This document shows, in pieces, positions 10,580 through 60,468 of a DNA stretch of 64,000 bases; position 1 is the first letter of the stretch, and the number at the start of each line of letters is the position of its first letter. The notes beneath the pieces were generated by a model that worked only from the letters and a program-made list of their open reading frames with translations, did not search any database and was not told where the DNA came from. Source of the DNA: Candidatus Micrarchaeota archaeon (GTDB taxonomy: Archaea > Micrarchaeota > Micrarchaeia > Norongarragalinales > SBBD01); the NCBI GenBank assembly GCA_018819225.1, contig JAHJQN010000004.1:273715-337714 (forward strand), read 5' to 3'. The position numbers were made by a program, and so were the translations under genes.

Positions 10580-13423
10580 TTACTCCATGTTTAAGTCGGG
10601 GAAGAAGGAATTCGGGGGTTCCGGAGGTTCCTCGATGATTTGAGACGGTCGCGTCGAAACATAAACCGCAATGACAACAATGAGGAGGATACCCAACAAC
10701 CAAATGTATGCATTGGAAGATGCTTTCGAGCTGCGTATGCGATTCAAAGCCACTTGAATTTTCTCTTTCGCACGTTCCCAAATCGATTGAGCTTCAACGG
10801 TTTTCCCTTGCTCTTCCAACTGTTGAGCTTGCAAAATCAATTGCTCAATCTCCTGCGTATCCTCGTTATTTTCATTCAATTCTTGAACCGCTTTCTTCAC
10901 GTCTTGATCATCCACTAAAGAAAACGGCATCCATTCCGTGGGCGTTACATACGGCGTCGGATGGATCAGTTGAGAACGGGGAGTCGGAGAACCCGCCATA
11001 GGAGGGCCGGTATAGTCTCCCGAATTTCCTCCGTTATAACTACCCCCGTTCGCATAGGGGGGCGGGCACTCCCCACAATCCGATTTACACGTACGACACG
11101 TTTCGCCCGCATCGGAATTGCATATTCCATCTCCACACGATGGTACGGGAGTCGGAGTCGCAGAACACGTACCCGTACAACACACTCCAAAACTGCAGAA
11201 CCCGCTTGAATCTGCAATGCATGAATCGTAATTGGCGCAATCGACAAGGCAGGTACCCCCTACGTCTTCACAAGAAGTCGGCAAGACCGGATCACCCAAA
11301 CCCGTAGGAACATAATCCAAATCCGATGTAAGCAACAAACGATCCAACCAGGTTCCATCCTCCCGGTTTCGAATCGTCAACGTATGCTCGCCAGCGGCCA
11401 ATGAAAATAACAAGGGATCAATGTCCGGATCGCGACTATTAGCAAGATCCCATACGTAAATCGTTCCATCCGCGGAAGGCGTGTCCCACGTGTACTCGGT
11501 CTGATCGTCCATGGTCACGTAAAAGCTGTTGGAAGCAGTGGAAGGCGATTTAACGCGTCCCCACAAATAAAAGTCTCCGAACCCCGGTATATAGAAATCG
11601 TACGAAATGGTTCCCACGTAATTGCCTTGATCTTCGGGAACAACCGCGTAATGCTCATTTGAAGACATCACATGTTCAACAATGTCCCAAACGCCGTCCG
11701 TTGAATCAAAATCTTCTCCTTCAATCCAAAGGAAAACATCGTCCCCGGACGGCGGTGGAGTCGGGGTAATTGTCGGAATCGGACAATCACCGGTACAACA
11801 AACACCTGAATCACAAAAACCATCCGTATCCAAGGTGCATAAATCATGATTCGAACATGCATCCAAACACTGACCGCCGATAGCCTCGCACGAATCCATG
11901 GGAGGCGGAGTCGGCGTCACCGTCGGAACCGTGCACGCTCCCACGCAGCATAAGCCCGAATCACAAAAGCCGTCTGGCTGCCAATTGCAATCATCGAAAT
12001 CATTGCAATTCAACAAACAACTTCCGCCAAAATCCCCGCACGGAACCTCCGCTCCGCTTCCTTCACAATACTCGAACGCCCCAATGTCCACTCGGCCATC
12101 ACACGAAGAAGGATAAGACGGATCGCCGGAATCGCGGGCGGGACTGTTAGGTAAAATATGGAAATCATCCGTCGACGCATCCACGAACAACGGATCCCCA
12201 CTCACGGAATGAGAATCGCGACCCGTAGCCATATACTCTTCCAACGTATTGTAATCCGTTCCCGCCACATGAATAAGCGCACCCGGAGTATCACGATAGT
12301 ATAAGTTGTAATCACTATCCAAATCATTGGTGCCATAATGACTATAATAAGCGGGCTGAGAACCACTGTAAAAAATATTATTTCGTTGCAGAAGTGTGGC
12401 GCCCGAACGTTGATAACTCTTCACCGCGGATAAATCATCCGTATAAATCGTATTACCCGTCATCACCAACGATTTCTGCCAAATAATTATTCCGAGACCG
12501 GTTGCATGACACACATTATCCACGAAATTGTCGGTCCAAGTCGGTTGGCTCACCGAAGCCGCTGAATGCGAATAGCATACTTGTGCATAAATCGTATTAT
12601 TACGCACCGTATTATCATGCGCAAGACTCATCACAGCGATTTCATTACTCCGAAACACATTCGCATTCAAATCATTATCAGTCGAATACTCCGGCCCACT
12701 GTGCCGTAAGCTGACGGACCACGACAAATCTCCGTCATTCGGAGGTAAATACGTCTGAGTAAACGAATTATTGAAAAACGTATTGAAATGCACACCCCCC
12801 AACTGAAGAATCTGCCCATTACTCCTCAGGAGCTTAACATCGTTAAATTGAAACGTATTATGATCACTTTTACTCATGAAAAAGATCATGTTGTTACCGG
12901 CCGGCGGATTCGAATCCTCTAAATAAAACGAATTACCGGAAATAAAATTCTCATCCGAACCGTCTTTTGAATTATACGCGTCTCCTAACACCAAACCCCC
13001 TGAAACCGCATTATTGATGAATCGATTACGGTCCGAATCGTATATTTCGATCGTGCCAAGAATATTTGATTTCAGCAGGCTATCATCGGTATACTGAAAT
13101 AACACACCTCCCTTTCCAGATCCTTTAATCAATTCCAGGTTCTGCACCGTCACATTCACTTGATGTTGACTTTTGATTCCATTCCCACTCACAAACGTAA
13201 TCCGCCTATGGTTTCCTTCCAAGATCACGTGATCCGCGTCGATTGTAATGCCGCCGGATGAAGACACCAAGTCAGATTCAAGCACATACAAGTGATTTGG
13301 AATGGAAATCGTATAGGGAACCGAGGTAATGCAAGTGGTGCCAGGATCGTTGCAGTTGTATGCAGAAGTCCAAGATACAAACAAGAGGAGGGATACGCCC
13401 CAAAATACACTTTGACGATTCAT
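10580..13423 (-). CDS. large secreted/surface protein: N-terminal beta-helix-like repeats, four 8-Cys modules, a ~150 aa shared domain, coiled coil and C-terminal TM anchor
   Basis: Signal peptide (MNRQSVFWGVSLLLFVSWTSA). Asn/Gly-rich repeats resemble a right-handed beta-helix. Modules CGDFGGSCLLNCNDFDDCNWQPDGFCDSGLCCVGAC, SCEAIGGQCLDACSNHDLCTLDTDGFCDSGVCCTGDC and SCEDVGGTCLVDCANYDSCIADSSGFCSFGVCCTGTC. The domain FLWIEGEDFDS...LLLTSDLDYVPTGLGDP is shared with the 58381-60468 protein. Pro/Thr linkers and a C-terminal TM segment. Confidence 0.7.
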   Translation of the reverse strand: MNRQSVFWGVSLLLFVSWTSAYNCNDPGTTCITSVPYTISIPNHLYVLESDLVSSSGGITIDADHVILEGNHRRITFVSGNGIKSQHQVNVTVQNLELIKGSGKGGVLFQYTDDSLLKSNILGTIEIYDSDRNRFINNAVSGGLVLGDAYNSKDGSDENFISGNSFYLEDSNPPAGNNMIFFMSKSDHNTFQFNDVKLLRSNGQILQLGGVHFNTFFNNSFTQTYLPPNDGDLSWSVSLRHSGPEYSTDNDLNANVFRSNEIAVMSLAHDNTVRNNTIYAQVCYSHSAASVSQPTWTDNFVDNVCHATGLGIIIWQKSLVMTGNTIYTDDLSAVKSYQRSGATLLQRNNIFYSGSQPAYYSHYGTNDLDSDYNLYYRDTPGALIHVAGTDYNTLEEYMATGRDSHSVSGDPLFVDASTDDFHILPNSPARDSGDPSYPSSCDGRVDIGAFEYCEGSGAEVPCGDFGGSCLLNCNDFDDCNWQPDGFCDSGLCCVGACTVPTVTPTPPPMDSCEAIGGQCLDACSNHDLCTLDTDGFCDSGVCCTGDCPIPTITPTPPPSGDDVFLWIEGEDFDSTDGVWDIVEHVMSSNEHYAVVPEDQGNYVGTISYDFYIPGFGDFYLWGRVKSPSTASNSFYVTMDDQTEYTWDTPSADGTIYVWDLANSRDPDIDPLLFSLAAGEHTLTIRNREDGTWLDRLLLTSDLDYVPTGLGDPVLPTSCEDVGGTCLVDCANYDSCIADSSGFCSFGVCCTGTCSATPTPVPSCGDGICNSDAGETCRTCKSDCGECPPPYANGGSYNGGNSGDYTGPPMAGSPTPRSQLIHPTPYVTPTEWMPFSLVDDQDVKKAVQELNENNEDTQEIEQLILQAQQLEEQGKTVEAQSIWERAKEKIQVALNRIRSSKASSNAYIWLLGILLIVVIAVYVSTRPSQIIEEPPEPPNSFFPDLNME

Positions 13424-13891: not shown

Positions 13892-14713
13892 CTATGCCGT
13901 GTTCTGCACGCACGCGTAGTCCGCCTTGACTTCCTCAGGGGAGAGAGCGCGGCTATAGAGCACGACCTGGTCCACGTCGCCGATGTCAAATCCATCGAAC
14001 AGCACGTTGAACGGATAGTTCTCGTTGTGGTCGGGAATCCAGTCCGTTCCAGGGTATGCTTGCGTGGCATCTTGCATGCCGTCCAAGTATAAGGAAACGG
14101 TGTCGGCGTCAAAGTCATAGGTTAAGGCAATATGGTGCCATTGGTTGATTGAAATGACGGTATTTCCAACGAGAGCTGTTCCCGTCACTCCAACGATTGC
14201 GCCAGCGAGTTTCCCATCAACTGATCCGAGGATATACTCGTCCACGAGGGCGACAAAGCTTGCGCTCCCGCCGGCATGTGGTGCCAAGGGATGAATCCAT
14301 GCCTCTATTGTAAATGATCGTTCGTTGAGGTAGAGCGATTCGTCTCGAGGAACGTCCACTGAAGCGTAGTCGAATCCTGCCCCGGTTTCAAGGTGTATTC
14401 CGTTGCCGGATATCCCTGGAACCCAATAGGGGTTCGGCGCGTTCCCATGGACGGTCATCACGCCGTCGCTTCCGCCTGTCGAATCCTTGGCCGTCGCACC
14501 GACTCCTTCGTCGAACTTCCACCAGTGAGCCGGCCTTTCCCCCATATACGTCGGAAGGCACGTGAGGCTATTGAACACGCCGAGATTGCTTTCAATGCCC
14601 TGCTTTCCGGCAAAGAGCGTGCTCCTGAGAATGATAAACGTCAGGGCGACAATAAGCAGAACGCCTGCCACAAGCAGAACGTACTCAAAGGCACCCTGCC
14701 CGCGTTTCAGCAT
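13892..14713 (-). CDS. archaeal type IV pilin-like protein with LamG/concanavalin-like domain
   Basis: N-terminus KRGQGAFEYVLLVAGVLLIVAL is a class III (prepilin-type) signal. Downstream is a LamG-like jelly-roll pattern (TIEAWIHP...WHHIALTYD...LYLDG). Confidence 0.55.
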   Translation of the reverse strand: MLKRGQGAFEYVLLVAGVLLIVALTFIILRSTLFAGKQGIESNLGVFNSLTCLPTYMGERPAHWWKFDEGVGATAKDSTGGSDGVMTVHGNAPNPYWVPGISGNGIHLETGAGFDYASVDVPRDESLYLNERSFTIEAWIHPLAPHAGGSASFVALVDEYILGSVDGKLAGAIVGVTGTALVGNTVISINQWHHIALTYDFDADTVSLYLDGMQDATQAYPGTDWIPDHNENYPFNVLFDGFDIGDVDQVVLYSRALSPEEVKADYACVQNTA

Positions 14714-14863: not shown

Positions 14864-16675
14864 TTATTTCTTCTTGCCGCTCTGCTGACTGTAATAGTAG
14901 TATCCCACTATGGCCACGAGAATCACAACGACAATGATCCAAATCGCGTAGTCAGGTCCAGCAGCTGCTGCCGGAGCAGCCGCCACCCCACCCGTTGAAG
15001 CGGGGCGTTGCGTCGGAATGGCCGTCGGCTTTACCCCATCATCTGCAGGAGTGGTTGCCGCTTTCGTCGAAGGCGCTTGGAACTCCTCCAATACGCTTTC
15101 ATCAACGCCCTTGCGGACCGTTACATCCGCTTTGAATTCCTGGTTCGCAGCCAAATTGACATCCCACACGGCGATCAGACTACCTTCTTCCACATGCGAA
15201 GGAGCCGGACTCAATGAAATGACTCCGCTCACGTAGTCCGCGTAATCGAAAGGCAATCGGAACGAAACCGTTCCACGGAAAGCGCTCGTGGGCTTGTACG
15301 ACAAGGTGAACGTGGCACGCGAGGCGCCAAACGATCCCTTAACGGATGCACCAGAGCCAATGGTCTTTGTCGACGAACTCAATTCAGGTTCTTCCTCGTC
15401 TTCAGGTTGAACCGAAGGAGCCGATGTCGGAACAGGCGTGGACGTCGAAGTCGAGCAGTCCGGATCCGTTCTTCGGGCGCGTACACATAACTCGTTGCAA
15501 CTTCCGTCGTCAGCACAAGAGGTGGAAAGACCCAAGCAATAGCCTGACGGACAATATGATCCAACCGGACATTGGGTATCCAACGTGCAAGTAACTCCGG
15601 AAGATCCTCCGGTAGGCGTCGGGGTTCCAGAAGACGTGCAGTTGCCAACCGTCATGATGGTTGCGTTGATCGCAAGAATGTGTTCAGAGTACACGGAGAT
15701 GTTGGCTTGACCCGTAGAAATACCGGTACCGTTAATGATCACGGCCGTCGTACCATTTCCAGAATAAACGGTAGCCACGTTCGTGTCATTGGAAGCCCAG
15801 TAAAACTCACCCGTCGTATTCGTATTACCTTGCGCGTCCAATCCATACGCCCCAATCGGCGTCGGAATCGAACAGCCCCCGATATTGAAATACGCTTGCG
15901 TGTTGTTAACGTATACCAAGGTAATATTGCCTGCAGTAACCGTTACAACCGTCGAGTTGGTCGCAGACGCGTTATCCGCATGGAACACCGTAATCAATGC
16001 CTGCCCCACCAACGTCCCGTTGACGGTCACCTCCAGCGAATTGTTACCAGCAGTCACTTCAGAAACCGTGGATGCGTTCGAAGACCAGTCCAAATTAGTC
16101 GTGCTGTTGACGTTACCATACTGGTCCAAAACAGATGCTAAAATGCGGCTGGAATTCCCTGCGGTAACATTTAACGCGGTAACGTTAACGTTTATGGAGT
16201 ACGCGTTGCCTGCCGTGGCCGTATACGTACCGGTACCACTATCCACGAGATCCGTACTCGGGGTGTCCGTCATGTTATAGGTATAAGCGGCAAGCGTGTG
16301 CAAACCGGTGGTCGTGTTAATAGTAATACCAGCAATCTCCAGCGACACATTCGTGTCTGCTGCAAAACTGGTGTTGGCGAAGTTGTAGGTCACGTTTTGG
16401 CCGCTTACGGCTACCGTACCCGAGCTGGGGATGGTAATTGTTGAAATTACGCTGGCACCGGAGACGGTATAACCAGTCGGGAATTCGACGGTAATGTTAG
16501 ACATATTCAAATGCGCGGTAGGTACGTCAAGCGTAATGTTGAACGCGACATCGCTCGTTCCAACAACCGTGGAGTTGGGGGTCACGTTCACGGCAGTCAA
16601 GGCTGCAGCCGAAGAAAATGAGGCGAGGGTGACTAGCATTAACGAAAACAAAAACACTTTGAACAATGGATTCAT
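14864..16675 (-). CDS. surface glycoprotein candidate (repeated Ig-like beta domains, many N-x-S/T sequons, C-terminal TM anchor)
   Basis: Signal peptide and Thr/Asn/Val-rich repeats with at least 30 NxT/NxS sequons. Cys-rich knot near residue 360, Pro/Thr linker, and a C-terminal WIIVVVILVAIVGYYYY + KKK anchor. Confidence 0.6.
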   Translation of the reverse strand: MNPLFKVFLFSLMLVTLASFSSAAALTAVNVTPNSTVVGTSDVAFNITLDVPTAHLNMSNITVEFPTGYTVSGASVISTITIPSSGTVAVSGQNVTYNFANTSFAADTNVSLEIAGITINTTTGLHTLAAYTYNMTDTPSTDLVDSGTGTYTATAGNAYSINVNVTALNVTAGNSSRILASVLDQYGNVNSTTNLDWSSNASTVSEVTAGNNSLEVTVNGTLVGQALITVFHADNASATNSTVVTVTAGNITLVYVNNTQAYFNIGGCSIPTPIGAYGLDAQGNTNTTGEFYWASNDTNVATVYSGNGTTAVIINGTGISTGQANISVYSEHILAINATIMTVGNCTSSGTPTPTGGSSGVTCTLDTQCPVGSYCPSGYCLGLSTSCADDGSCNELCVRARRTDPDCSTSTSTPVPTSAPSVQPEDEEEPELSSSTKTIGSGASVKGSFGASRATFTLSYKPTSAFRGTVSFRLPFDYADYVSGVISLSPAPSHVEEGSLIAVWDVNLAANQEFKADVTVRKGVDESVLEEFQAPSTKAATTPADDGVKPTAIPTQRPASTGGVAAAPAAAAGPDYAIWIIVVVILVAIVGYYYYSQQSGKKK

Positions 16676-51181: not shown

Positions 51182-53101
51182 CTATTTTTTGAATAACCGG
51201 CGCACGCGATACGAGGCGCGCTGCTTATTCAATGTTTCCAAACGGGACTTGATTTCCGTCAACTTCCGCTCGTTCGCCAACATCTTGGAACGATAAACGT
51301 CTTGCGACACTTGACGCTTCAACAAACGGTACTTGAGATCCTGCTTTTCATTTTCCATACGAACGCGTTCGGCCTCCAAAAGTGCGGGTTCCTTCGCACG
51401 CTTCCGGTACGAACGCACGCTTTTCAGGAAACCATACCCCAGCAAGCCCGCGACCGCCAATAGCGCCCCATAAACAATATACGCATTCGGACGAGGAGGA
51501 ATATAGACCGTATACAAAAAGGCTTCCTCTCCCGGAATTAATCGCGCCACGAACACTCCGGATTCGTTTAAGGCATTCGATAAACGGATGGCGTACGTCC
51601 CATTCACGGGAGGAAAAATCTCGCAAATGAAGTTGGAATGCGTACCGTCAAATGGGGGGCGGCAAATGCACGTGGACGGTCCCTTGCAAGGTAAATTGAA
51701 TGCCAGACGAGACTCGCTATCCGTGAACACGAACACCCGCGTCTTGCGCGTCGAGTCAATGACCTCGGGAGAAAAATAGTACTCCAGGACGAGAATGGAG
51801 TTAATGATTTCTTCCAGTTCAGGAATAATGGTGGGCCGCACCTCCTTTTTCACCGCCGTATTAGGAGGCAACGGCGTCGCATCCCACGTCGCAGAAGGAA
51901 GAGTGTACGTCGAAGGGGCTGGAAGCGCTCCAGGATAGAACGCGGGATCTTCCGAAGGAGGCAAGGGAGCTACCGTGATGCCCGGTTGTCCCGTTAAACA
52001 TCCTCTGCCTCCAGAGGTCCACTGCCATTCCAAACCAACGCGTTCGCAGGAATACCCGATTCCCCCGCAATTAATGAACTGGCACGAATTACCCGAATTG
52101 CACGTCCACTCCCGGTAATTGCATGAAGAAGAAACGGATACCGCCGCGCAACCCAAACATTCTCCGGCAATTTTAAGCTGTTGCGAAGTACACGAATCCT
52201 GACACGCCCCCGGTACCTGCGAACAACCTTTAACGGGATCGCAAACCGCACTGCAACAACCCGGCGACCGACACCGATCGGATTCCAACGAACAACCCGC
52301 CTTGCCCTCCGTAAACGCATAATGCCATGACCCTCCCCCTACCGAAACGCACGCGTTGCCAGGACACACGGGCTGACCCGCACATTGAGAACCATCCAAA
52401 CTCCATTCAAATTGAGCGCTCGTTCCATTAAACGTGCACGCGAACAACCCGCTCCCACAAACCCCTTGATCGCAATACGTTTCCAAAGTACACGGGGATA
52501 CGGTTGCCACGCATTCACCGCCTTGGCACGTTCCATGCGTGGAAAGATTCTGAGCGCCGCAAACGTCGTTACAAACCGTTCCATTCGCCAACGGTTCGCA
52601 TAACCACGTTTGATTCGAACAAACATAAGACGTATTGATTCCGCAAGCCCCGCATTCGGACGGGTAACCACTGCAGCCGCCGCTACAACAAAACGCGTCC
52701 TCTCCGCACGAGAAACCGGTTTGATCATTGCCGCAAGATACATCGACGGTAGCTACCCCGCATTCCAACGAAACCGCCGGAGCCTCCAGCGATGCATTCG
52801 CAAGAAATTCGCCGGACGCGTTATAGGTGCAATTCGCGTAAAAGAGTTCCGACGTATACCCGCAGCTTTCTTCCGAACGAATGAGCTCGTAAACATCCGG
52901 CAAACCTTCATTCGCGCAATCCATTTCTATTGAAATGGAACCGCACACGTGAGACACGTTAATCGACAAGGAAATCGTCGTCTGCACGTCTCCCGAGTAC
53001 TCGGAGGGAACCAACGCACAAGCTGGAGGCAACTGAATGGGAGGTGCTGCCAACGCGTTCACGGCCCAAAGGATGAGCAGAACACTAAACAGTAACCGCA
53101 T
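51182..53101 (-). CDS. Cys-rich surface protein with TM anchor and cytoplasmic coiled-coil tail
   Basis: Signal peptide, about 60 Cys in the ectodomain (many CxxC/CGxxxC), a TM near residue 540 and a basic coiled-coil C-terminus. Confidence 0.55.
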   Translation of the reverse strand: MRLLFSVLLILWAVNALAAPPIQLPPACALVPSEYSGDVQTTISLSINVSHVCGSISIEMDCANEGLPDVYELIRSEESCGYTSELFYANCTYNASGEFLANASLEAPAVSLECGVATVDVSCGNDQTGFSCGEDAFCCSGGCSGYPSECGACGINTSYVCSNQTWLCEPLANGTVCNDVCGAQNLSTHGTCQGGECVATVSPCTLETYCDQGVCGSGLFACTFNGTSAQFEWSLDGSQCAGQPVCPGNACVSVGGGSWHYAFTEGKAGCSLESDRCRSPGCCSAVCDPVKGCSQVPGACQDSCTSQQLKIAGECLGCAAVSVSSSCNYREWTCNSGNSCQFINCGGIGYSCERVGLEWQWTSGGRGCLTGQPGITVAPLPPSEDPAFYPGALPAPSTYTLPSATWDATPLPPNTAVKKEVRPTIIPELEEIINSILVLEYYFSPEVIDSTRKTRVFVFTDSESRLAFNLPCKGPSTCICRPPFDGTHSNFICEIFPPVNGTYAIRLSNALNESGVFVARLIPGEEAFLYTVYIPPRPNAYIVYGALLAVAGLLGYGFLKSVRSYRKRAKEPALLEAERVRMENEKQDLKYRLLKRQVSQDVYRSKMLANERKLTEIKSRLETLNKQRASYRVRRLFKK

Positions 53102-55782: not shown

Positions 55783-56724
55783 ATGCATATCGAGATTCGC
55801 ACGATCGGCAGGAAAAAGAAATTCTACCTTGCTCATTCGTACCGCCGGCAAGGGAAAGTAGTTAAACTGCGGGTTTATCTGGGGTCTGGCCTTTCCTCAG
55901 ACGAATTGGCTGCAAGGAAGGTCCGTGCTGAAGAGCGTCTCAGTTTTCGGATTTCGGCAATAGGCTCAATCCGAGATCCGTTTCAAACGGCTCTCTCCGC
56001 CAGCGAACTGCGGGAACTTGAAACACTCGAAACCAGGGGGGAAATCGCAGTAAGGTACCTGTCGGAAGAGGACTGGCGCAAATTCACCGAAGCGTTCGCA
56101 TTCGACACCAACGCCATCGAAGGCTCTTCGGTTCTTGCAAACGAAGTCGGCGACATTCTGGAAAGGGACAAGTGGCCGGACAAACCGAAAGAAGACATTT
56201 CCGAGACTTACGGGGTTGCCAAGGCAATCGAATTCATACGAAAGACCAAAGACCCCGTTTCCATTCCCCTCGTACTCGAACTCCACCGGCTGGTCTTCCG
56301 GAATTCGAAACCGTTTGCTGGAAGGCTGCGCGGTCGAGGTGTCGAAGTGGTAATCGGCGACGGGAGAGGCAACGTCATCCACCGCGGCGCGCCTTCCACG
56401 CAGGTGCGTAGCCTACTGGGCAAGCTAGTCAAATGGTACGGTGAGAACAAGAAAAAATATCCTCCACTGGTACTGGCCGCCGTGGTGCATAACCAGTTCG
56501 AGAACATCCACCCGTTCCAGGACGGCAACGGCCGAGTCGGAAGGCTGCTATTGAACAACATCCTCCTCAAGCACGGCCTTCCCCCGCTAAACATCGAGCT
56601 CCGCAACCGGCAGGAATACTACGCCGCCCTGCAGGAATACGAGCGCAGCCAGAACATCCGGCCGACAATCGAGCTGATGCTTAAGGAATACCGCGCCCTC
56701 AAGCGGCTGCTCAAGAAAAGGTGA
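55783..56724 (+). CDS. fic: Fic-domain protein (AMPylase/Doc-Fic family) with internal inhibitory helix motif
   Basis: Fic signature HPFQDGNGRVGRLL (HxFx[DE]GNGRxxR) and upstream TNAIEG ([ST]xxxE[GN] inhibitory motif); 313 aa. Confidence 0.8.
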   Translation: MHIEIRTIGRKKKFYLAHSYRRQGKVVKLRVYLGSGLSSDELAARKVRAEERLSFRISAIGSIRDPFQTALSASELRELETLETRGEIAVRYLSEEDWRKFTEAFAFDTNAIEGSSVLANEVGDILERDKWPDKPKEDISETYGVAKAIEFIRKTKDPVSIPLVLELHRLVFRNSKPFAGRLRGRGVEVVIGDGRGNVIHRGAPSTQVRSLLGKLVKWYGENKKKYPPLVLAAVVHNQFENIHPFQDGNGRVGRLLLNNILLKHGLPPLNIELRNRQEYYAALQEYERSQNIRPTIELMLKEYRALKRLLKKR

Positions 56725-58295: not shown

Positions 58296-58367
58296 GCCTC
58301 CGTAGCTCAGTAGTAGAGCGCTTCCTTGGTAAGGAAGAGGTCGCGGGTGCGATTCCCGCCGGAGGCT
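58296..58367 (+). tRNA. tRNA-Thr(GGT), intronless
   Basis: GCCTCCG-TA-GCTC-AGTAGTA-GAGC-G-CTTCC-TTGGTAA-GGAAG-AGGTC-GCGGG-TGCGATT-CCCGC-CGGAGGC-T. Confidence 0.85.
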
Positions 58368-58380
58368 TGAATTCTTTTTT

Positions 58381-60468
58381 TTAATTTCGTATCTTCTTGT
58401 GAATGACGCGTTTACGTTTGTCGTGGAAGAACCAAGCACTCGCTACAGCCACTGAAAAGAGTAGAATAAGCCAGACGCTGTTAGAGAAAAGACCTCGTTC
58501 CTCTTGACGACGTCGATATTCTTGTTCAGCCGCAAGATACCCTGACTCTCCCCGCAAAACGGTTTGTTTCGGAATCCCCACCATCAATGGACTGCCACCA
58601 GGAGGCCAGCGAGTCGGAACCGGTGAAGGAGTGACCGTGGATTCGGGCTCGCCCATTCCAGAAGGAACGTACTCCAGATCATTCGTTATCAACAGCTTGT
58701 CTAATTGCATTCCATCCTCACGGTTGCGAACCGTCAACGTATGGAAACCAGCGGAAAGATCAAACGCAAGAGGATCCAAAGGAGGAGAACGGCTGTTCGC
58801 GACATCCCACCGCCACACGTTGCCGCCCGCCGTATCCCAAATATATTCTGCACCGCCATCCATGCGAATGAACACGCTGTCTGCTGCCGTGTGAGGAGAC
58901 AATTCACGACCCCAAACGCGATATTCTCCTGAAACGGGAACCTCGAAAGAATAGGTCAAGAGGTCGGCGTCGCCGCCTGCATTGAACGGAACGAGCACGA
59001 ATTCGCCATTGGAAGCGTCTTCATCCACATCAATGACCCACGCTCCGAGCAAGGACGAAAAGTGTTCGGCCTCCACCCAATAATAGGAGTATCCCGGAAC
59101 AGCCGTAGGAGAACATGAACCCAAACAACATACGCCGGACCCGCAATACCCTTCATCCTCCAAGAAACAATCATCGTAGAAACCGCAGTTGGCGCGACAC
59201 GACCCACCCAATGCTTCGCAAGGAACGGGTGTCGGCGTGCTCGTGCACGATCCGATACAGCAGATTCCAGTCGAACAATAACCCTCGGCATCCCAAACGC
59301 ATTCATTGAATTGACTACAATCCTCTAAACATTGTCCGCCCAAATCCTCCTCGCAATAAATATCCGAGCCGCCGCCTTCAAAAGTCAGCGTGGCCTGGAT
59401 GAGATTGAAGGAATCGAACGATCCTTGTCCGGAAAACACGAGCCAAACCGTTTCTCCATTCGCGCTGATCCACTTGCTCGGAAAATTGTAAAAGAATGAA
59501 GGCTCGTAATCCCAAGAATCAAAAATGGCTACGGTATACCAGGGCCCCCAAGGATTCGGTGCCTCAAAAATAGACATGCCGCTACCTGAAACCCCGCCGT
59601 TGTCTCCCACGTGGTGATCGCCGACCAATAAGTACCTCCCCGAAGGAGAATGATACGTGACAACCGGAGGTGCCCAACCCACATTCTCTTTAATGAAAAC
59701 GGGTTGTCGGAGAGTCAAGTCATTCGTCCATTGGTTTAAACCAGTCGAGAATTCATACTGATCCCGATCCCAAATGAAATCTTTAGGAACGCGCATTAAA
59801 TCCACTTCCCCGGGAACCTGAACCTTGAGACCGGTAGCATCCTTCAACCGCGTCGCGTACATATACACGAATCCATCCGGCGACGCCGCATCCTCCCCGT
59901 ACTGCGAGATGCTGGGTAAAATCAATTCGTTTTCTTCAGTGAACATCCAATTGTTTTGAAGTTCCCAAGTTGCCCCATGATCGTACGAACGCGCCAGCCT
60001 CGCATTATCGTAATTCATATTATTGGAACCCGGACTGACCCACATGTATAATACGCCATCAATGGAAACGATCCCGTAAGACTTGCCGGTAAACGTAGCG
60101 GGATTTTCTGCAGCACACGAAGCAGGAGGCGCATGTTCTGGATTTTCGCAACTGCCGTCCCCCAACGCATGGCACCCCCATAAATTGACGGGCACGAAAT
60201 CGACGGCATCCCCTTCAATGCGAGTTAAACCCAAACTAGCGCGACAAAGGGTATTGGATCCTTCAAAACCGCCTCCGTCACCCCAACTCGTGTATTGATG
60301 ACCGTCATCCGCCCAAGTCATCGGAAAATTATCGCTTCCTGAAGCGGCATTGAAATAGGTCGCAGGATTAAACGAGATGTCGGTAATGACGGTGCTTGAC
60401 GGATACGCCACGTTCAGCGAAAGAAAACATATGAAAAAAACAAGAAAGGTACGGAATGCCCCTCGCAT
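58381..60468 (-). CDS. large secreted/surface protein: N-terminal glycoside-hydrolase-like/beta-propeller-like region, two 8-Cys modules, shared ~150 aa domain, C-terminal TM anchor
   Basis: Signal peptide. Modules CEEDLGGQCLEDCSQFNECVWDAEGYCSTGICCIGSC and PCEALGGSCRANCGFYDDCFLEDEGYCGSGVCCLGSC. The domain YYWVEAEHFSS...LLITNDLEYVPSGMGEP is paralogous to 10580-13423. C-terminal TM. Confidence 0.7.
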   Translation of the reverse strand: MRGAFRTFLVFFICFLSLNVAYPSSTVITDISFNPATYFNAASGSDNFPMTWADDGHQYTSWGDGGGFEGSNTLCRASLGLTRIEGDAVDFVPVNLWGCHALGDGSCENPEHAPPASCAAENPATFTGKSYGIVSIDGVLYMWVSPGSNNMNYDNARLARSYDHGATWELQNNWMFTEENELILPSISQYGEDAASPDGFVYMYATRLKDATGLKVQVPGEVDLMRVPKDFIWDRDQYEFSTGLNQWTNDLTLRQPVFIKENVGWAPPVVTYHSPSGRYLLVGDHHVGDNGGVSGSGMSIFEAPNPWGPWYTVAIFDSWDYEPSFFYNFPSKWISANGETVWLVFSGQGSFDSFNLIQATLTFEGGGSDIYCEEDLGGQCLEDCSQFNECVWDAEGYCSTGICCIGSCTSTPTPVPCEALGGSCRANCGFYDDCFLEDEGYCGSGVCCLGSCSPTAVPGYSYYWVEAEHFSSLLGAWVIDVDEDASNGEFVLVPFNAGGDADLLTYSFEVPVSGEYRVWGRELSPHTAADSVFIRMDGGAEYIWDTAGGNVWRWDVANSRSPPLDPLAFDLSAGFHTLTVRNREDGMQLDKLLITNDLEYVPSGMGEPESTVTPSPVPTRWPPGGSPLMVGIPKQTVLRGESGYLAAEQEYRRRQEERGLFSNSVWLILLFSVAVASAWFFHDKRKRVIHKKIRN

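Follow-up and report, generated by a model that had tools for sequence, protein, structure and literature searches.

Five copies of a short module with eight cysteines are encoded in a 64,000-nucleotide stretch of DNA (the window) from a Candidatus Micrarchaeota archaeon (assembly GCA_018819225.1, contig JAHJQN010000004.1, positions 273,715 to 337,714). They are carried by two large open reading frames (ORFs) on the minus strand, here called ORF1 and ORF2, whose products are predicted surface proteins. The module is genuine and under purifying selection. Sequence searches of Pfam, NCBIfam and the Protein Data Bank (PDB) assign it to none of their families, and it is new to the domain databases. 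We consider it highly probable that it represents a genuine new domain family of the disulfide type. Eukaryotes have many small extracellular modules rich in disulfides; from archaea, few such modules are known to have been described.

Module copies, host proteins and distribution

A regular-expression scan of all six frames of the window recovered the module exactly five times, three times in ORF1 and twice in ORF2 (Table 1), and a pattern scan of the DNA agreed; no further frame or ORF matched in the six-frame scan. The pattern was absent from 200 residue-shuffled six-frame sets, from 2000 shuffles of each of the three Cys-rich proteins and from 100 dinucleotide shuffles of the window DNA, so that the five copies across two proteins described in the first-pass annotation were confirmed. 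The back-translated DNA pattern fixes the spacing as C1-x6/7-C2-x3-C3-x5-C4-x7-C5-x4-C6C7-x3-C8, which gives 36-37 residues from the first to the last cysteine and a Cys content of 22%, and thirteen residues (eight Cys and five Gly) are invariant among the five copies. Some details of the earlier description needed correction. It had allowed four or five residues before the G-[FY]-C element, where all five copies have five, hence C4-x7-C5. The spacing that it called strict fits four copies and fails in the first copy of ORF2 (CEEDLGGQC), which has an extra residue in loop 1. Its placement of the module at 11050-11300 holds for the third copy of ORF1, which shares this interval with a different six-cysteine motif, while the other four copies lie outside. 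The linkers rich in proline and threonine (PT linkers) that it had noticed after several copies are present in both ORFs. Pairwise identity of the five copies is 40-47% in protein and 56-65% in DNA, and differing synonymous codons are used at all 13 invariant residues. Such codon differences indicate that selection acts on the protein and that the copies are old duplicates; a recent DNA repeat as their origin is ruled out by the low DNA identity together with the synonymous differences at every invariant residue.

Both host proteins are modular. ORF1 begins with a signal peptide and a right-handed beta-helix-like domain (weak matches to DUF5123, to choice-of-anchor Q and to PDB entry 9rx2, a parallel beta-helix repeat protein), followed by module 1, a PT linker, module 2, a second PT linker, a beta-sandwich and module 3; a further PT linker, a CGDGIC motif, a low-complexity region, an acidic helix and a transmembrane anchor complete the protein. 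ORF2 runs from a signal peptide through a DUF4185-like domain, module 1, a PT linker, module 2 and a beta-sandwich to a PT region, a GGSPLM motif and a transmembrane anchor. The proteins had been described as extracellular, and in support of this each has a signal-peptide-like segment at the N-terminus and a transmembrane segment at the C-terminus; with such a start and end, the bulk of both proteins, modules included, is predicted to be extracellular. Moreover, a cassette of module, PT linker, module and beta-sandwich occurs in the same order in ORF2 and in residues 454-712 of ORF1, with 46% identity over 260 residues, beside N-terminal domains (beta-helix-like in ORF1, DUF4185-like in ORF2) that are unrelated. 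A shared cassette in the same order beside unrelated domains implies shuffling as a unit; the module is mobile between surface proteins and moved as a cassette.

The family extends beyond the window. A profile of the five copies, searched against 1.84 billion representative proteins, recovered 12 proteins at E<=1e-3, both window ORFs among them. Eight of the 12 belong to this Candidatus Micrarchaeota genome, and the remaining four are divided between other archaea (three) and an uncultured bacterium (one). ORF1 and ORF2 are present verbatim on a 709,457-bp contig in the European Nucleotide Archive (ENA); six further proteins, P0004-P0009, belong to the same genome, four of them encoded on the same ENA contig and five with KJ765 locus tags. 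The source genome holds at least 11 module copies in 8 proteins. The genes for P0009, P0008 and P0004 (Ga0180009_10000107, 27-47 kb; L086, L084, L117) are beta-helix paralogues that lie side by side and each end with one module; surface enzymes with the module have thus expanded locally, in tandem, in this organism. Elsewhere, P0003 is a Nanoarchaeota protein with five copies, P0012 comes from an unclassified archaeon, P0011 has contig neighbours (ThiN and Nre) that look archaeal, and P0010, from the uncultured "bacterium", is encoded beside a cohesin/dockerin-like gene (weak hits). Nothing useful emerged when the beta-sandwich, ORF2, P0007 and P0012 were compared with the sequences of the PDB. 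A DNA pattern scan with the exact spacing, which covered species-representative genomes (596 Gb) and metagenomes of the Joint Genome Institute (JGI; 241 million records), returned 120 loci, seven of them real by hidden Markov model (HMM) score and the remainder TG/GC-rich low-complexity repeats. The seven true loci have two sources, six being contigs that encode the same-genome proteins P0004-P0009 and one the contig of the P0012 archaeon. The family is real but extremely narrow and restricted to a few DPANN-type genomes.

Table 1. Features of ORF1 and ORF2 in the window (window coordinates; aa, amino acid residues).
Feature	Position	Strand	Remarks
ORF1, 947 aa, MBU1197568.1, hypothetical protein KJ765_03565 (Candidatus Micrarchaeota archaeon)	10580..13423	-	
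ORF1 N-terminal beta-helix-like domain (aa ~22-452)	12068..13360	-	all matches weak
ORF1 module copy 1 (aa 462-497) CGDFGGSCLLNCNDFDDCNWQPDGFCDSGLCCVGAC	11933..12040	-	profile 71.1 bits
PT linker between ORF1 modules 1 and 2, TVPTVTPTPPPMDS	11891..11932	-	
ORF1 module copy 2 (aa 512-547) CEAIGGQCLDACSNHDLCTLDTDGFCDSGVCCTGDC	11783..11890	-	profile 70.0 bits
PT linker following ORF1 module 2, PIPTITPTPPPS	11747..11782	-	
ORF1 beta-sandwich-like domain (aa ~562-712)	11288..11740	-	common to ORF2; weak GH115_C-like Pfam match
ORF1 module copy 3 (aa 718-753) CEDVGGTCLVDCANYDSCIADSSGFCSFGVCCTGTC	11165..11272	-	profile 68.1 bits
Different 6-Cys motif just after ORF1 module 3, CGDGICNSDAGETCRTCKSDCGEC	11066..11137	-	outside the 8-Cys family; no Pfam match
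ORF1 C-terminal transmembrane anchor (aa 901-919)	10667..10723	-	
ORF2, 695 aa, MBU1197620.1, DUF4185 domain-containing protein	58381..60468	-	same genome as ORF1
ORF2 DUF4185-like N-terminal domain	59374..60399	-	38.7 bits against a Pfam cut-off of 39.5
ORF2 module copy 1 (aa 372-408) CEEDLGGQCLEDCSQFNECVWDAEGYCSTGICCIGSC	59245..59355	-	profile 72.2 bits; one extra loop-1 residue
ORF2 module copy 2 (aa 417-452) CEALGGSCRANCGFYDDCFLEDEGYCGSGVCCLGSC	59113..59220	-	profile 69.3 bits
ORF2 beta-sandwich-like domain (aa ~458-608)	58645..59097	-	weak GH115_C-like match, E=0.0029
ORF2 C-terminal transmembrane anchor (aa ~664-682), then basic KRKR tail	58423..58479	-	read by eye from the sequence; no segment above the hydrophobicity-scan threshold

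Predicted fold and comparison with known cysteine-rich families

Searches for a known family were uniformly negative. None of the five window copies matched Pfam at E<=10, and among 21 members of the family no Pfam match was significant, the best being Disintegrin (two members) and Defensin_beta (one) at E=0.16. NCBIfam contained nothing relevant for the module, the module profile gave chance-level matches only against all PDB sequences, and with a structural model of the module Foldseek found no match in the PDB and the BFVD fold search returned noise only. A word-index protein homology search with the 5-copy and 19-copy alignments and the 255-aa cassette yielded nothing, its index being ill-suited to short or rare sequences. 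Likewise, a literature search on Cys-rich surface modules of DPANN archaea retrieved no relevant description. The initial impression that the module is neither EGF, a defensin nor a known archaeal domain is supported by the Pfam, NCBIfam and PDB profile searches, all without a significant match, and the HMM check proposed at the time matched no well-characterised Cys-knot family.

AlphaFold2, run on the 21 aligned modules, predicted a compact fold with confidence, the predicted local distance difference test (pLDDT) score being 90.5; a model from five sequences only was poor (pLDDT 63.7) and was not used. The model has a helix at residues 2-5, a helical turn at 14-16 and strands at 9-11, 20-22 and 32-36; in the predicted fold the short N-terminal helix packs against a sheet of three antiparallel strands. 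In the alignment of the 21 modules a variable surface covers an invariant Cys/Gly skeleton. The Cys count stays at eight, even in shortened variants found in P0003, and this constancy, the extracellular location and the sheet-based mini-fold suggest that the eight cysteines form four disulfides. Net charge ranges from -1 to -8 and is negative in every module (21/21), reaching -4 or lower in 20 of them. Further, Tyr or Phe occupies alignment column 18, three residues after C3, in 16/21 modules and column 28, before C5, in 12/21.

If the organism lives in anoxic groundwater, the cysteines might bind metal (Zn, Fe or Cu clusters, as in metallothioneins) instead of forming disulfides. The high and invariant Cys content (22%) would suit such a role, and an anoxic habitat is plausible for DPANN archaea. 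However, the module has no CxxC pairs and no His ligands, its Cys number is even throughout, the proteins are exported by the Sec pathway with the module placed amid PT linkers, and the AlphaFold2 model is built on a regular sheet, as is typical of small domains rich in disulfides; we therefore regard metal binding as very unlikely. A zinc-ribbon or Fe-S motif is ruled out by the lack of CxxC.

The module might alternatively be a divergent homologue of a known Cys-rich family such as hevein/CBM18, WAP or the trans-defensins of the beta-defensin/Ueq 12-1 type, and thus not be new. Profile-profile tests with hhalign, which used small family alignments entered by hand, gave probabilities of 29.5% for hevein, 11% for WAP, 9% for EGF, 2.2% for beta-defensin and 0.2% for CBM1, a set of signals of which none is significant and which point in different directions. 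Hevein, the best of the tested comparisons (over 32 columns), resembles the module in its length of about 40 residues, in its eight Cys with four disulfides (presumed for the module), in occurring as tandem accessory modules of carbohydrate-active proteins, and in a core of the form "C-S-x-aromatic-x-x-C...aromatic-C", where "C-S-x-[FY]-x-x-C...G-[FY]-C" of the module aligns with "C-S-Q-W-G-W-C...E-Y-C" of hevein. Yet the CC doublet stands at Cys 3-4 in hevein and at Cys 6-7 in the module, so at least one disulfide must differ, and the predicted secondary structure of the module departs from the hevein fold. None of the 21 modules matched PF00187 at E<=10, and the hevein signature C-x4,5-C-C-S-x2-G-x-C-G-x4-[FYW]-C is not present, the CC doublet being absent at that place. 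Hevein domains are known from eukaryotes. WAP domains also have eight Cys in about 40 residues and a "G-x-CC-x-G-x-C" element near the C-terminus, but their doublet (Cys 5-6) is preceded by four Cys and followed by two, against five and one in the module; no 8-Cys module matched PF00095, and the framework C-xn-C-xn-C-x5-C-x5-CC-x3-C-x3-C was not found. For EGF-like domains, which have a six-Cys framework, there was no Pfam match to the EGF family, and the PDB profile search touched only an EGF/TGF-alpha chimera (E=0.11 over 19 residues).

The layout predicted for the module, with a short helix at the N-terminus, three antiparallel strands in a sheet and the CC doublet in the last of these strands, is also that of beta- and trans-defensins, and beta-defensins begin with a comparable "C-x6-C-x3/4-C", the "C...GGQCL..C" of the module resembling "CVSSGGQCLYSAC" of hBD1. 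Single modules (1/21 each) touched the profiles of Defensin_beta (PF00711, E=0.16) and Defensin_beta_2 (PF13841, E=0.57), neither significantly. In contrast to the eight Cys and strong negative charge of the module, beta-defensins are cationic and have six Cys spaced C-x6-C-x4-C-x9-C-x6-CC, with the doublet as a terminal pair. Their connectivity is C1-C5, C2-C4, C3-C6. A cationic antimicrobial defensin is contradicted by the negative net charge of all 21 modules, and a CS-alpha/beta (cis-) defensin was rejected since CxxxC is present (C2-x3-C3) but CxC is not, C2 lying in strand 9-11 with no helix that spans C2-C3. Another comparison is offered by Ueq 12-1, an anionic peptide with the motif C6C2C5C4C6C5C6CCC (PMC5450702), which like the module as modelled has a core of three antiparallel strands, adjacent Cys in the last strand and nearly the same spacing of the first four Cys (C6C2C5C against C6C3C5C). 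Ueq 12-1 differs in its 10 Cys, five disulfides and CCC, where the module has 8 Cys and CC-x3-C, and in being a free secreted animal toxin or antimicrobial peptide instead of a part of large archaeal surface enzymes. Sequence identity between the two is 16% and the hhalign probability 0.5%, which amounts to no sequence relationship. Trans-defensins have been described only from animals (PMC11561630). With no significant signal, three mutually incompatible families indicated, a CC doublet at a different place in each of them and a charge opposite to that of defensins, we give divergent membership of a known family a slim chance.

Partner domains and possible roles

Across the family, modules always occur in secreted, mostly membrane-anchored, multidomain proteins, usually after domains that resemble polysaccharide lyases, hydrolases or esterases. 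The partners comprise DUF4185, Pel9A-like and pectate-lyase beta-helices, HepII_C, PcRGLX, GH127-like domains, a BD-FAE esterase and cohesin; in P0006, the HepII_C match is accompanied by PDB heparinase II structures at E=2e-11. P0004 from Micrarchaeota and P0003 from Nanoarchaeota are 39% identical over 595 residues and carry the module at the same place, directly after the beta-helix domain, with four tandem copies in P0003. DPANN genomes have been reported to encode extracellular carbohydrate-active enzymes (CAZymes), PL9 included (PMC8561730). The module is thus like a carbohydrate-binding module in the generic CAZy sense, which denotes a functional class and not a family: its predicted fold is confident and autonomous, and most of the 12 proteins have a domain resembling a lyase, hydrolase or esterase beside it, though several of these assignments are below Pfam cut-offs.

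We infer an accessory, non-catalytic role. The module would be a mobile unit, single or in tandem and often on PT linkers, placed between enzyme-like domains and a C-terminal anchor. By analogy with small carbohydrate-binding modules (CBMs) such as fungal CBM1 and hevein/CBM18, it might act as a compact, stable target-binding unit that tethers the enzyme part to a glycan surface, e.g. the host cell envelope or extracellular polysaccharide, with the semi-conserved exposed aromatics of columns 18 and 28 mediating the contact. Such a CBM-like role is favoured because of the polysaccharide-acting partners, the layout of beads on PT linkers, the tandem copies and the aromatic positions. CBM1 is likewise a disulfide-stabilised bead of about 36 residues on Pro/Thr-rich linkers beside polysaccharide-degrading domains, and ORF1 and ORF2 have the same layout; it differs in its four Cys and in fold and motif. 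Taken as a whole, a new disulfide-stabilised accessory module with a glycan-binding role is a plausible reading that we adopt tentatively, stopping short of calling it probable. Several points weigh against it. The module resembles no CBM family significantly, and none of its 21 examples matched Chitin_bind_1 or CBM_1 in Pfam. The conserved aromatics could merely pack on the disulfide core, and the disulfides are themselves deduced. The strong acidity would be odd for binding acidic pectate- or heparin-like polysaccharides, unless Ca2+ bridges the two. Finally, several partner-domain assignments are weak and below Pfam cut-offs, and P0005 and P0007 are without a recognisable enzyme domain.

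A structural role as spacer or stalk is nearly as plausible as CBM-like binding, although taken by itself we find it doubtful. In this main rival reading, beads stapled by disulfides would alternate with Pro/Thr linkers, presumably glycosylated, in an extended stalk resistant to proteases, which would keep the catalytic domains off the membrane or carry them through the envelope and would have no ligand of its own. EGF-like repeats play this stalk role in eukaryotic surface proteins. The module generally sits between N-terminal globular domains and the C-terminal anchor, where an anchor is present, and the four copies of P0003 stand head to tail with "TEP" joints of 3-5 residues; an invariant Cys/Gly skeleton under a variable surface also suits a scaffold, as does the lack of any CBM similarity in Pfam and hhalign. 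On the other hand, ORF1 has modules on both sides of the beta-sandwich with flexible linkers between them, which is the layout of binding modules and not of a continuous rod, and a spacer has no need of semi-conserved aromatics. Moreover, one copy in P0011 lies at the extreme C-terminus, beyond the hydrophobic segments, and cannot act as a spacer there.

The module might also serve in adhesion, by docking the surface enzymes to a protein of the host cell or of the symbiont's own envelope in the manner of dockerin and cohesin or of host-attachment modules. DPANN episymbionts need proteins for host contact, expansion within one lineage is typical of host-interaction repertoires, and the modules of P0010 adjoin a cohesin domain, with weak cohesin/dockerin matches in a neighbouring gene. 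However, the small size and uniform acidity leave little interface, and the module keeps company mostly with polysaccharide-acting domains and not with adhesin repeats. Protein-protein adhesion is thus quite improbable in our view. Like metal binding and a distant relationship to the hevein, defensin or WAP families, it is less likely than a CBM-like or spacer role. A bolder proposal, which we judge unlikely, is that the fold itself is new among disulfide-rich folds, or else the first of the trans-defensin/Ueq 12-1 type in a prokaryote, and that DPANN episymbionts invented or acquired the module and expanded it as a host-surface recognition unit on their envelope-degrading enzymes.

At least 11 copies in 8 surface proteins of one reduced genome, most of them with polysaccharide lyase- or hydrolase-like domains, suggest that the module matters for how the surface enzymes of a DPANN symbiont meet their target, be it the host envelope or environmental glycans. 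If a defined glycan is bound, the module would found a new CBM-type family and, with 37 residues, offer a very small and stable binding scaffold. As a host-surface recognition unit, it would be a new family in the smallest class of prokaryotic carbohydrate- or host-binding modules and would shed light on how these archaea attach to their hosts and feed on them. As a spacer only, it would be a neat but unremarkable example of a domain invented and shuffled within one lineage. In either role it deserves a domain-family entry, by which these "hypothetical proteins" could be annotated consistently.

Accompanying motifs, anchors and neighbouring genes

Besides the eight-cysteine module, other Cys-rich motifs occur in the same proteins. 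A motif similar to the six-cysteine motif of ORF1 is found in P0009 (YCGDGICQNSESCSTCKPDCGLC; no Pfam match). A separate 6-Cys relative, "TC.(E/D)QGG..C..(D/E)E.CP..QW......D..CCAVECEG", lies directly N-terminal of the 8-Cys module in three proteins of the same genome encoded outside the window (P0006 aa ~805-845, P0008 aa ~515-553 and P0009 aa ~583-622) and gave nothing significant in Pfam; it shares the "C...GG..C" start and the "CC-x3-C" end and may be a simpler homologue.

Two types of C-terminal anchor are conserved among the module-bearing proteins. In type A (ORF1, P0007 and P0009), an acidic helix "EL..NG.DT.EI...EA.S.W.RAK...RS.KAS" precedes the transmembrane segment, in ORF1 at window positions 10667-10930(-), aa ~830-919. 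Type B (ORF2, P0004, P0006 and P0008) consists of "GGSPLM(A/V)", "GYL.AEQ", a transmembrane segment and a basic KRKR tail, in ORF2 at 58381-58600(-), aa ~620-695, and the type B transmembrane region of P0004 recurs in P0003. To our knowledge, neither type is a known archaeal sorting signal; both could be lineage-specific signals for sorting or anchoring.

Other surface proteins are encoded in the window, which is archaeal. The 639-aa surface protein at 51182-53101(-) contains 46 Cys; it has a signal peptide and a transmembrane segment, and its long cytoplasmic tail is basic and resembles a coiled coil. It matches nothing in Pfam or NCBIfam and contains no 8-Cys module, and the different spacing that the first-pass annotation had ascribed to its cysteines was verified. 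The 603-aa protein at 14864-16675(-) is secreted, C-terminally anchored, extremely rich in N-x-S/T sequons and without a Pfam match; it is a candidate for an S-layer protein or a surface protein with heavy glycosylation. Adjoining it, at 13892-14713(-), a 273-aa protein fuses a class III (pilin-type) signal peptide to a LamG/ConA-like domain. A tRNA-Thr(GGT) gene lies at 58296-58367(+), 14 bases from the 3' end of ORF2, and (L001 741-1888) small genes for a ParE toxin and a DUF2683 protein, which may form toxin-antitoxin pairs, stand between the start of ORF2 and a CorA gene. A Fic/DOC gene is located at 55783-56724, and the window also encodes topoisomerase VI B, TruD and an Lhr-type helicase.

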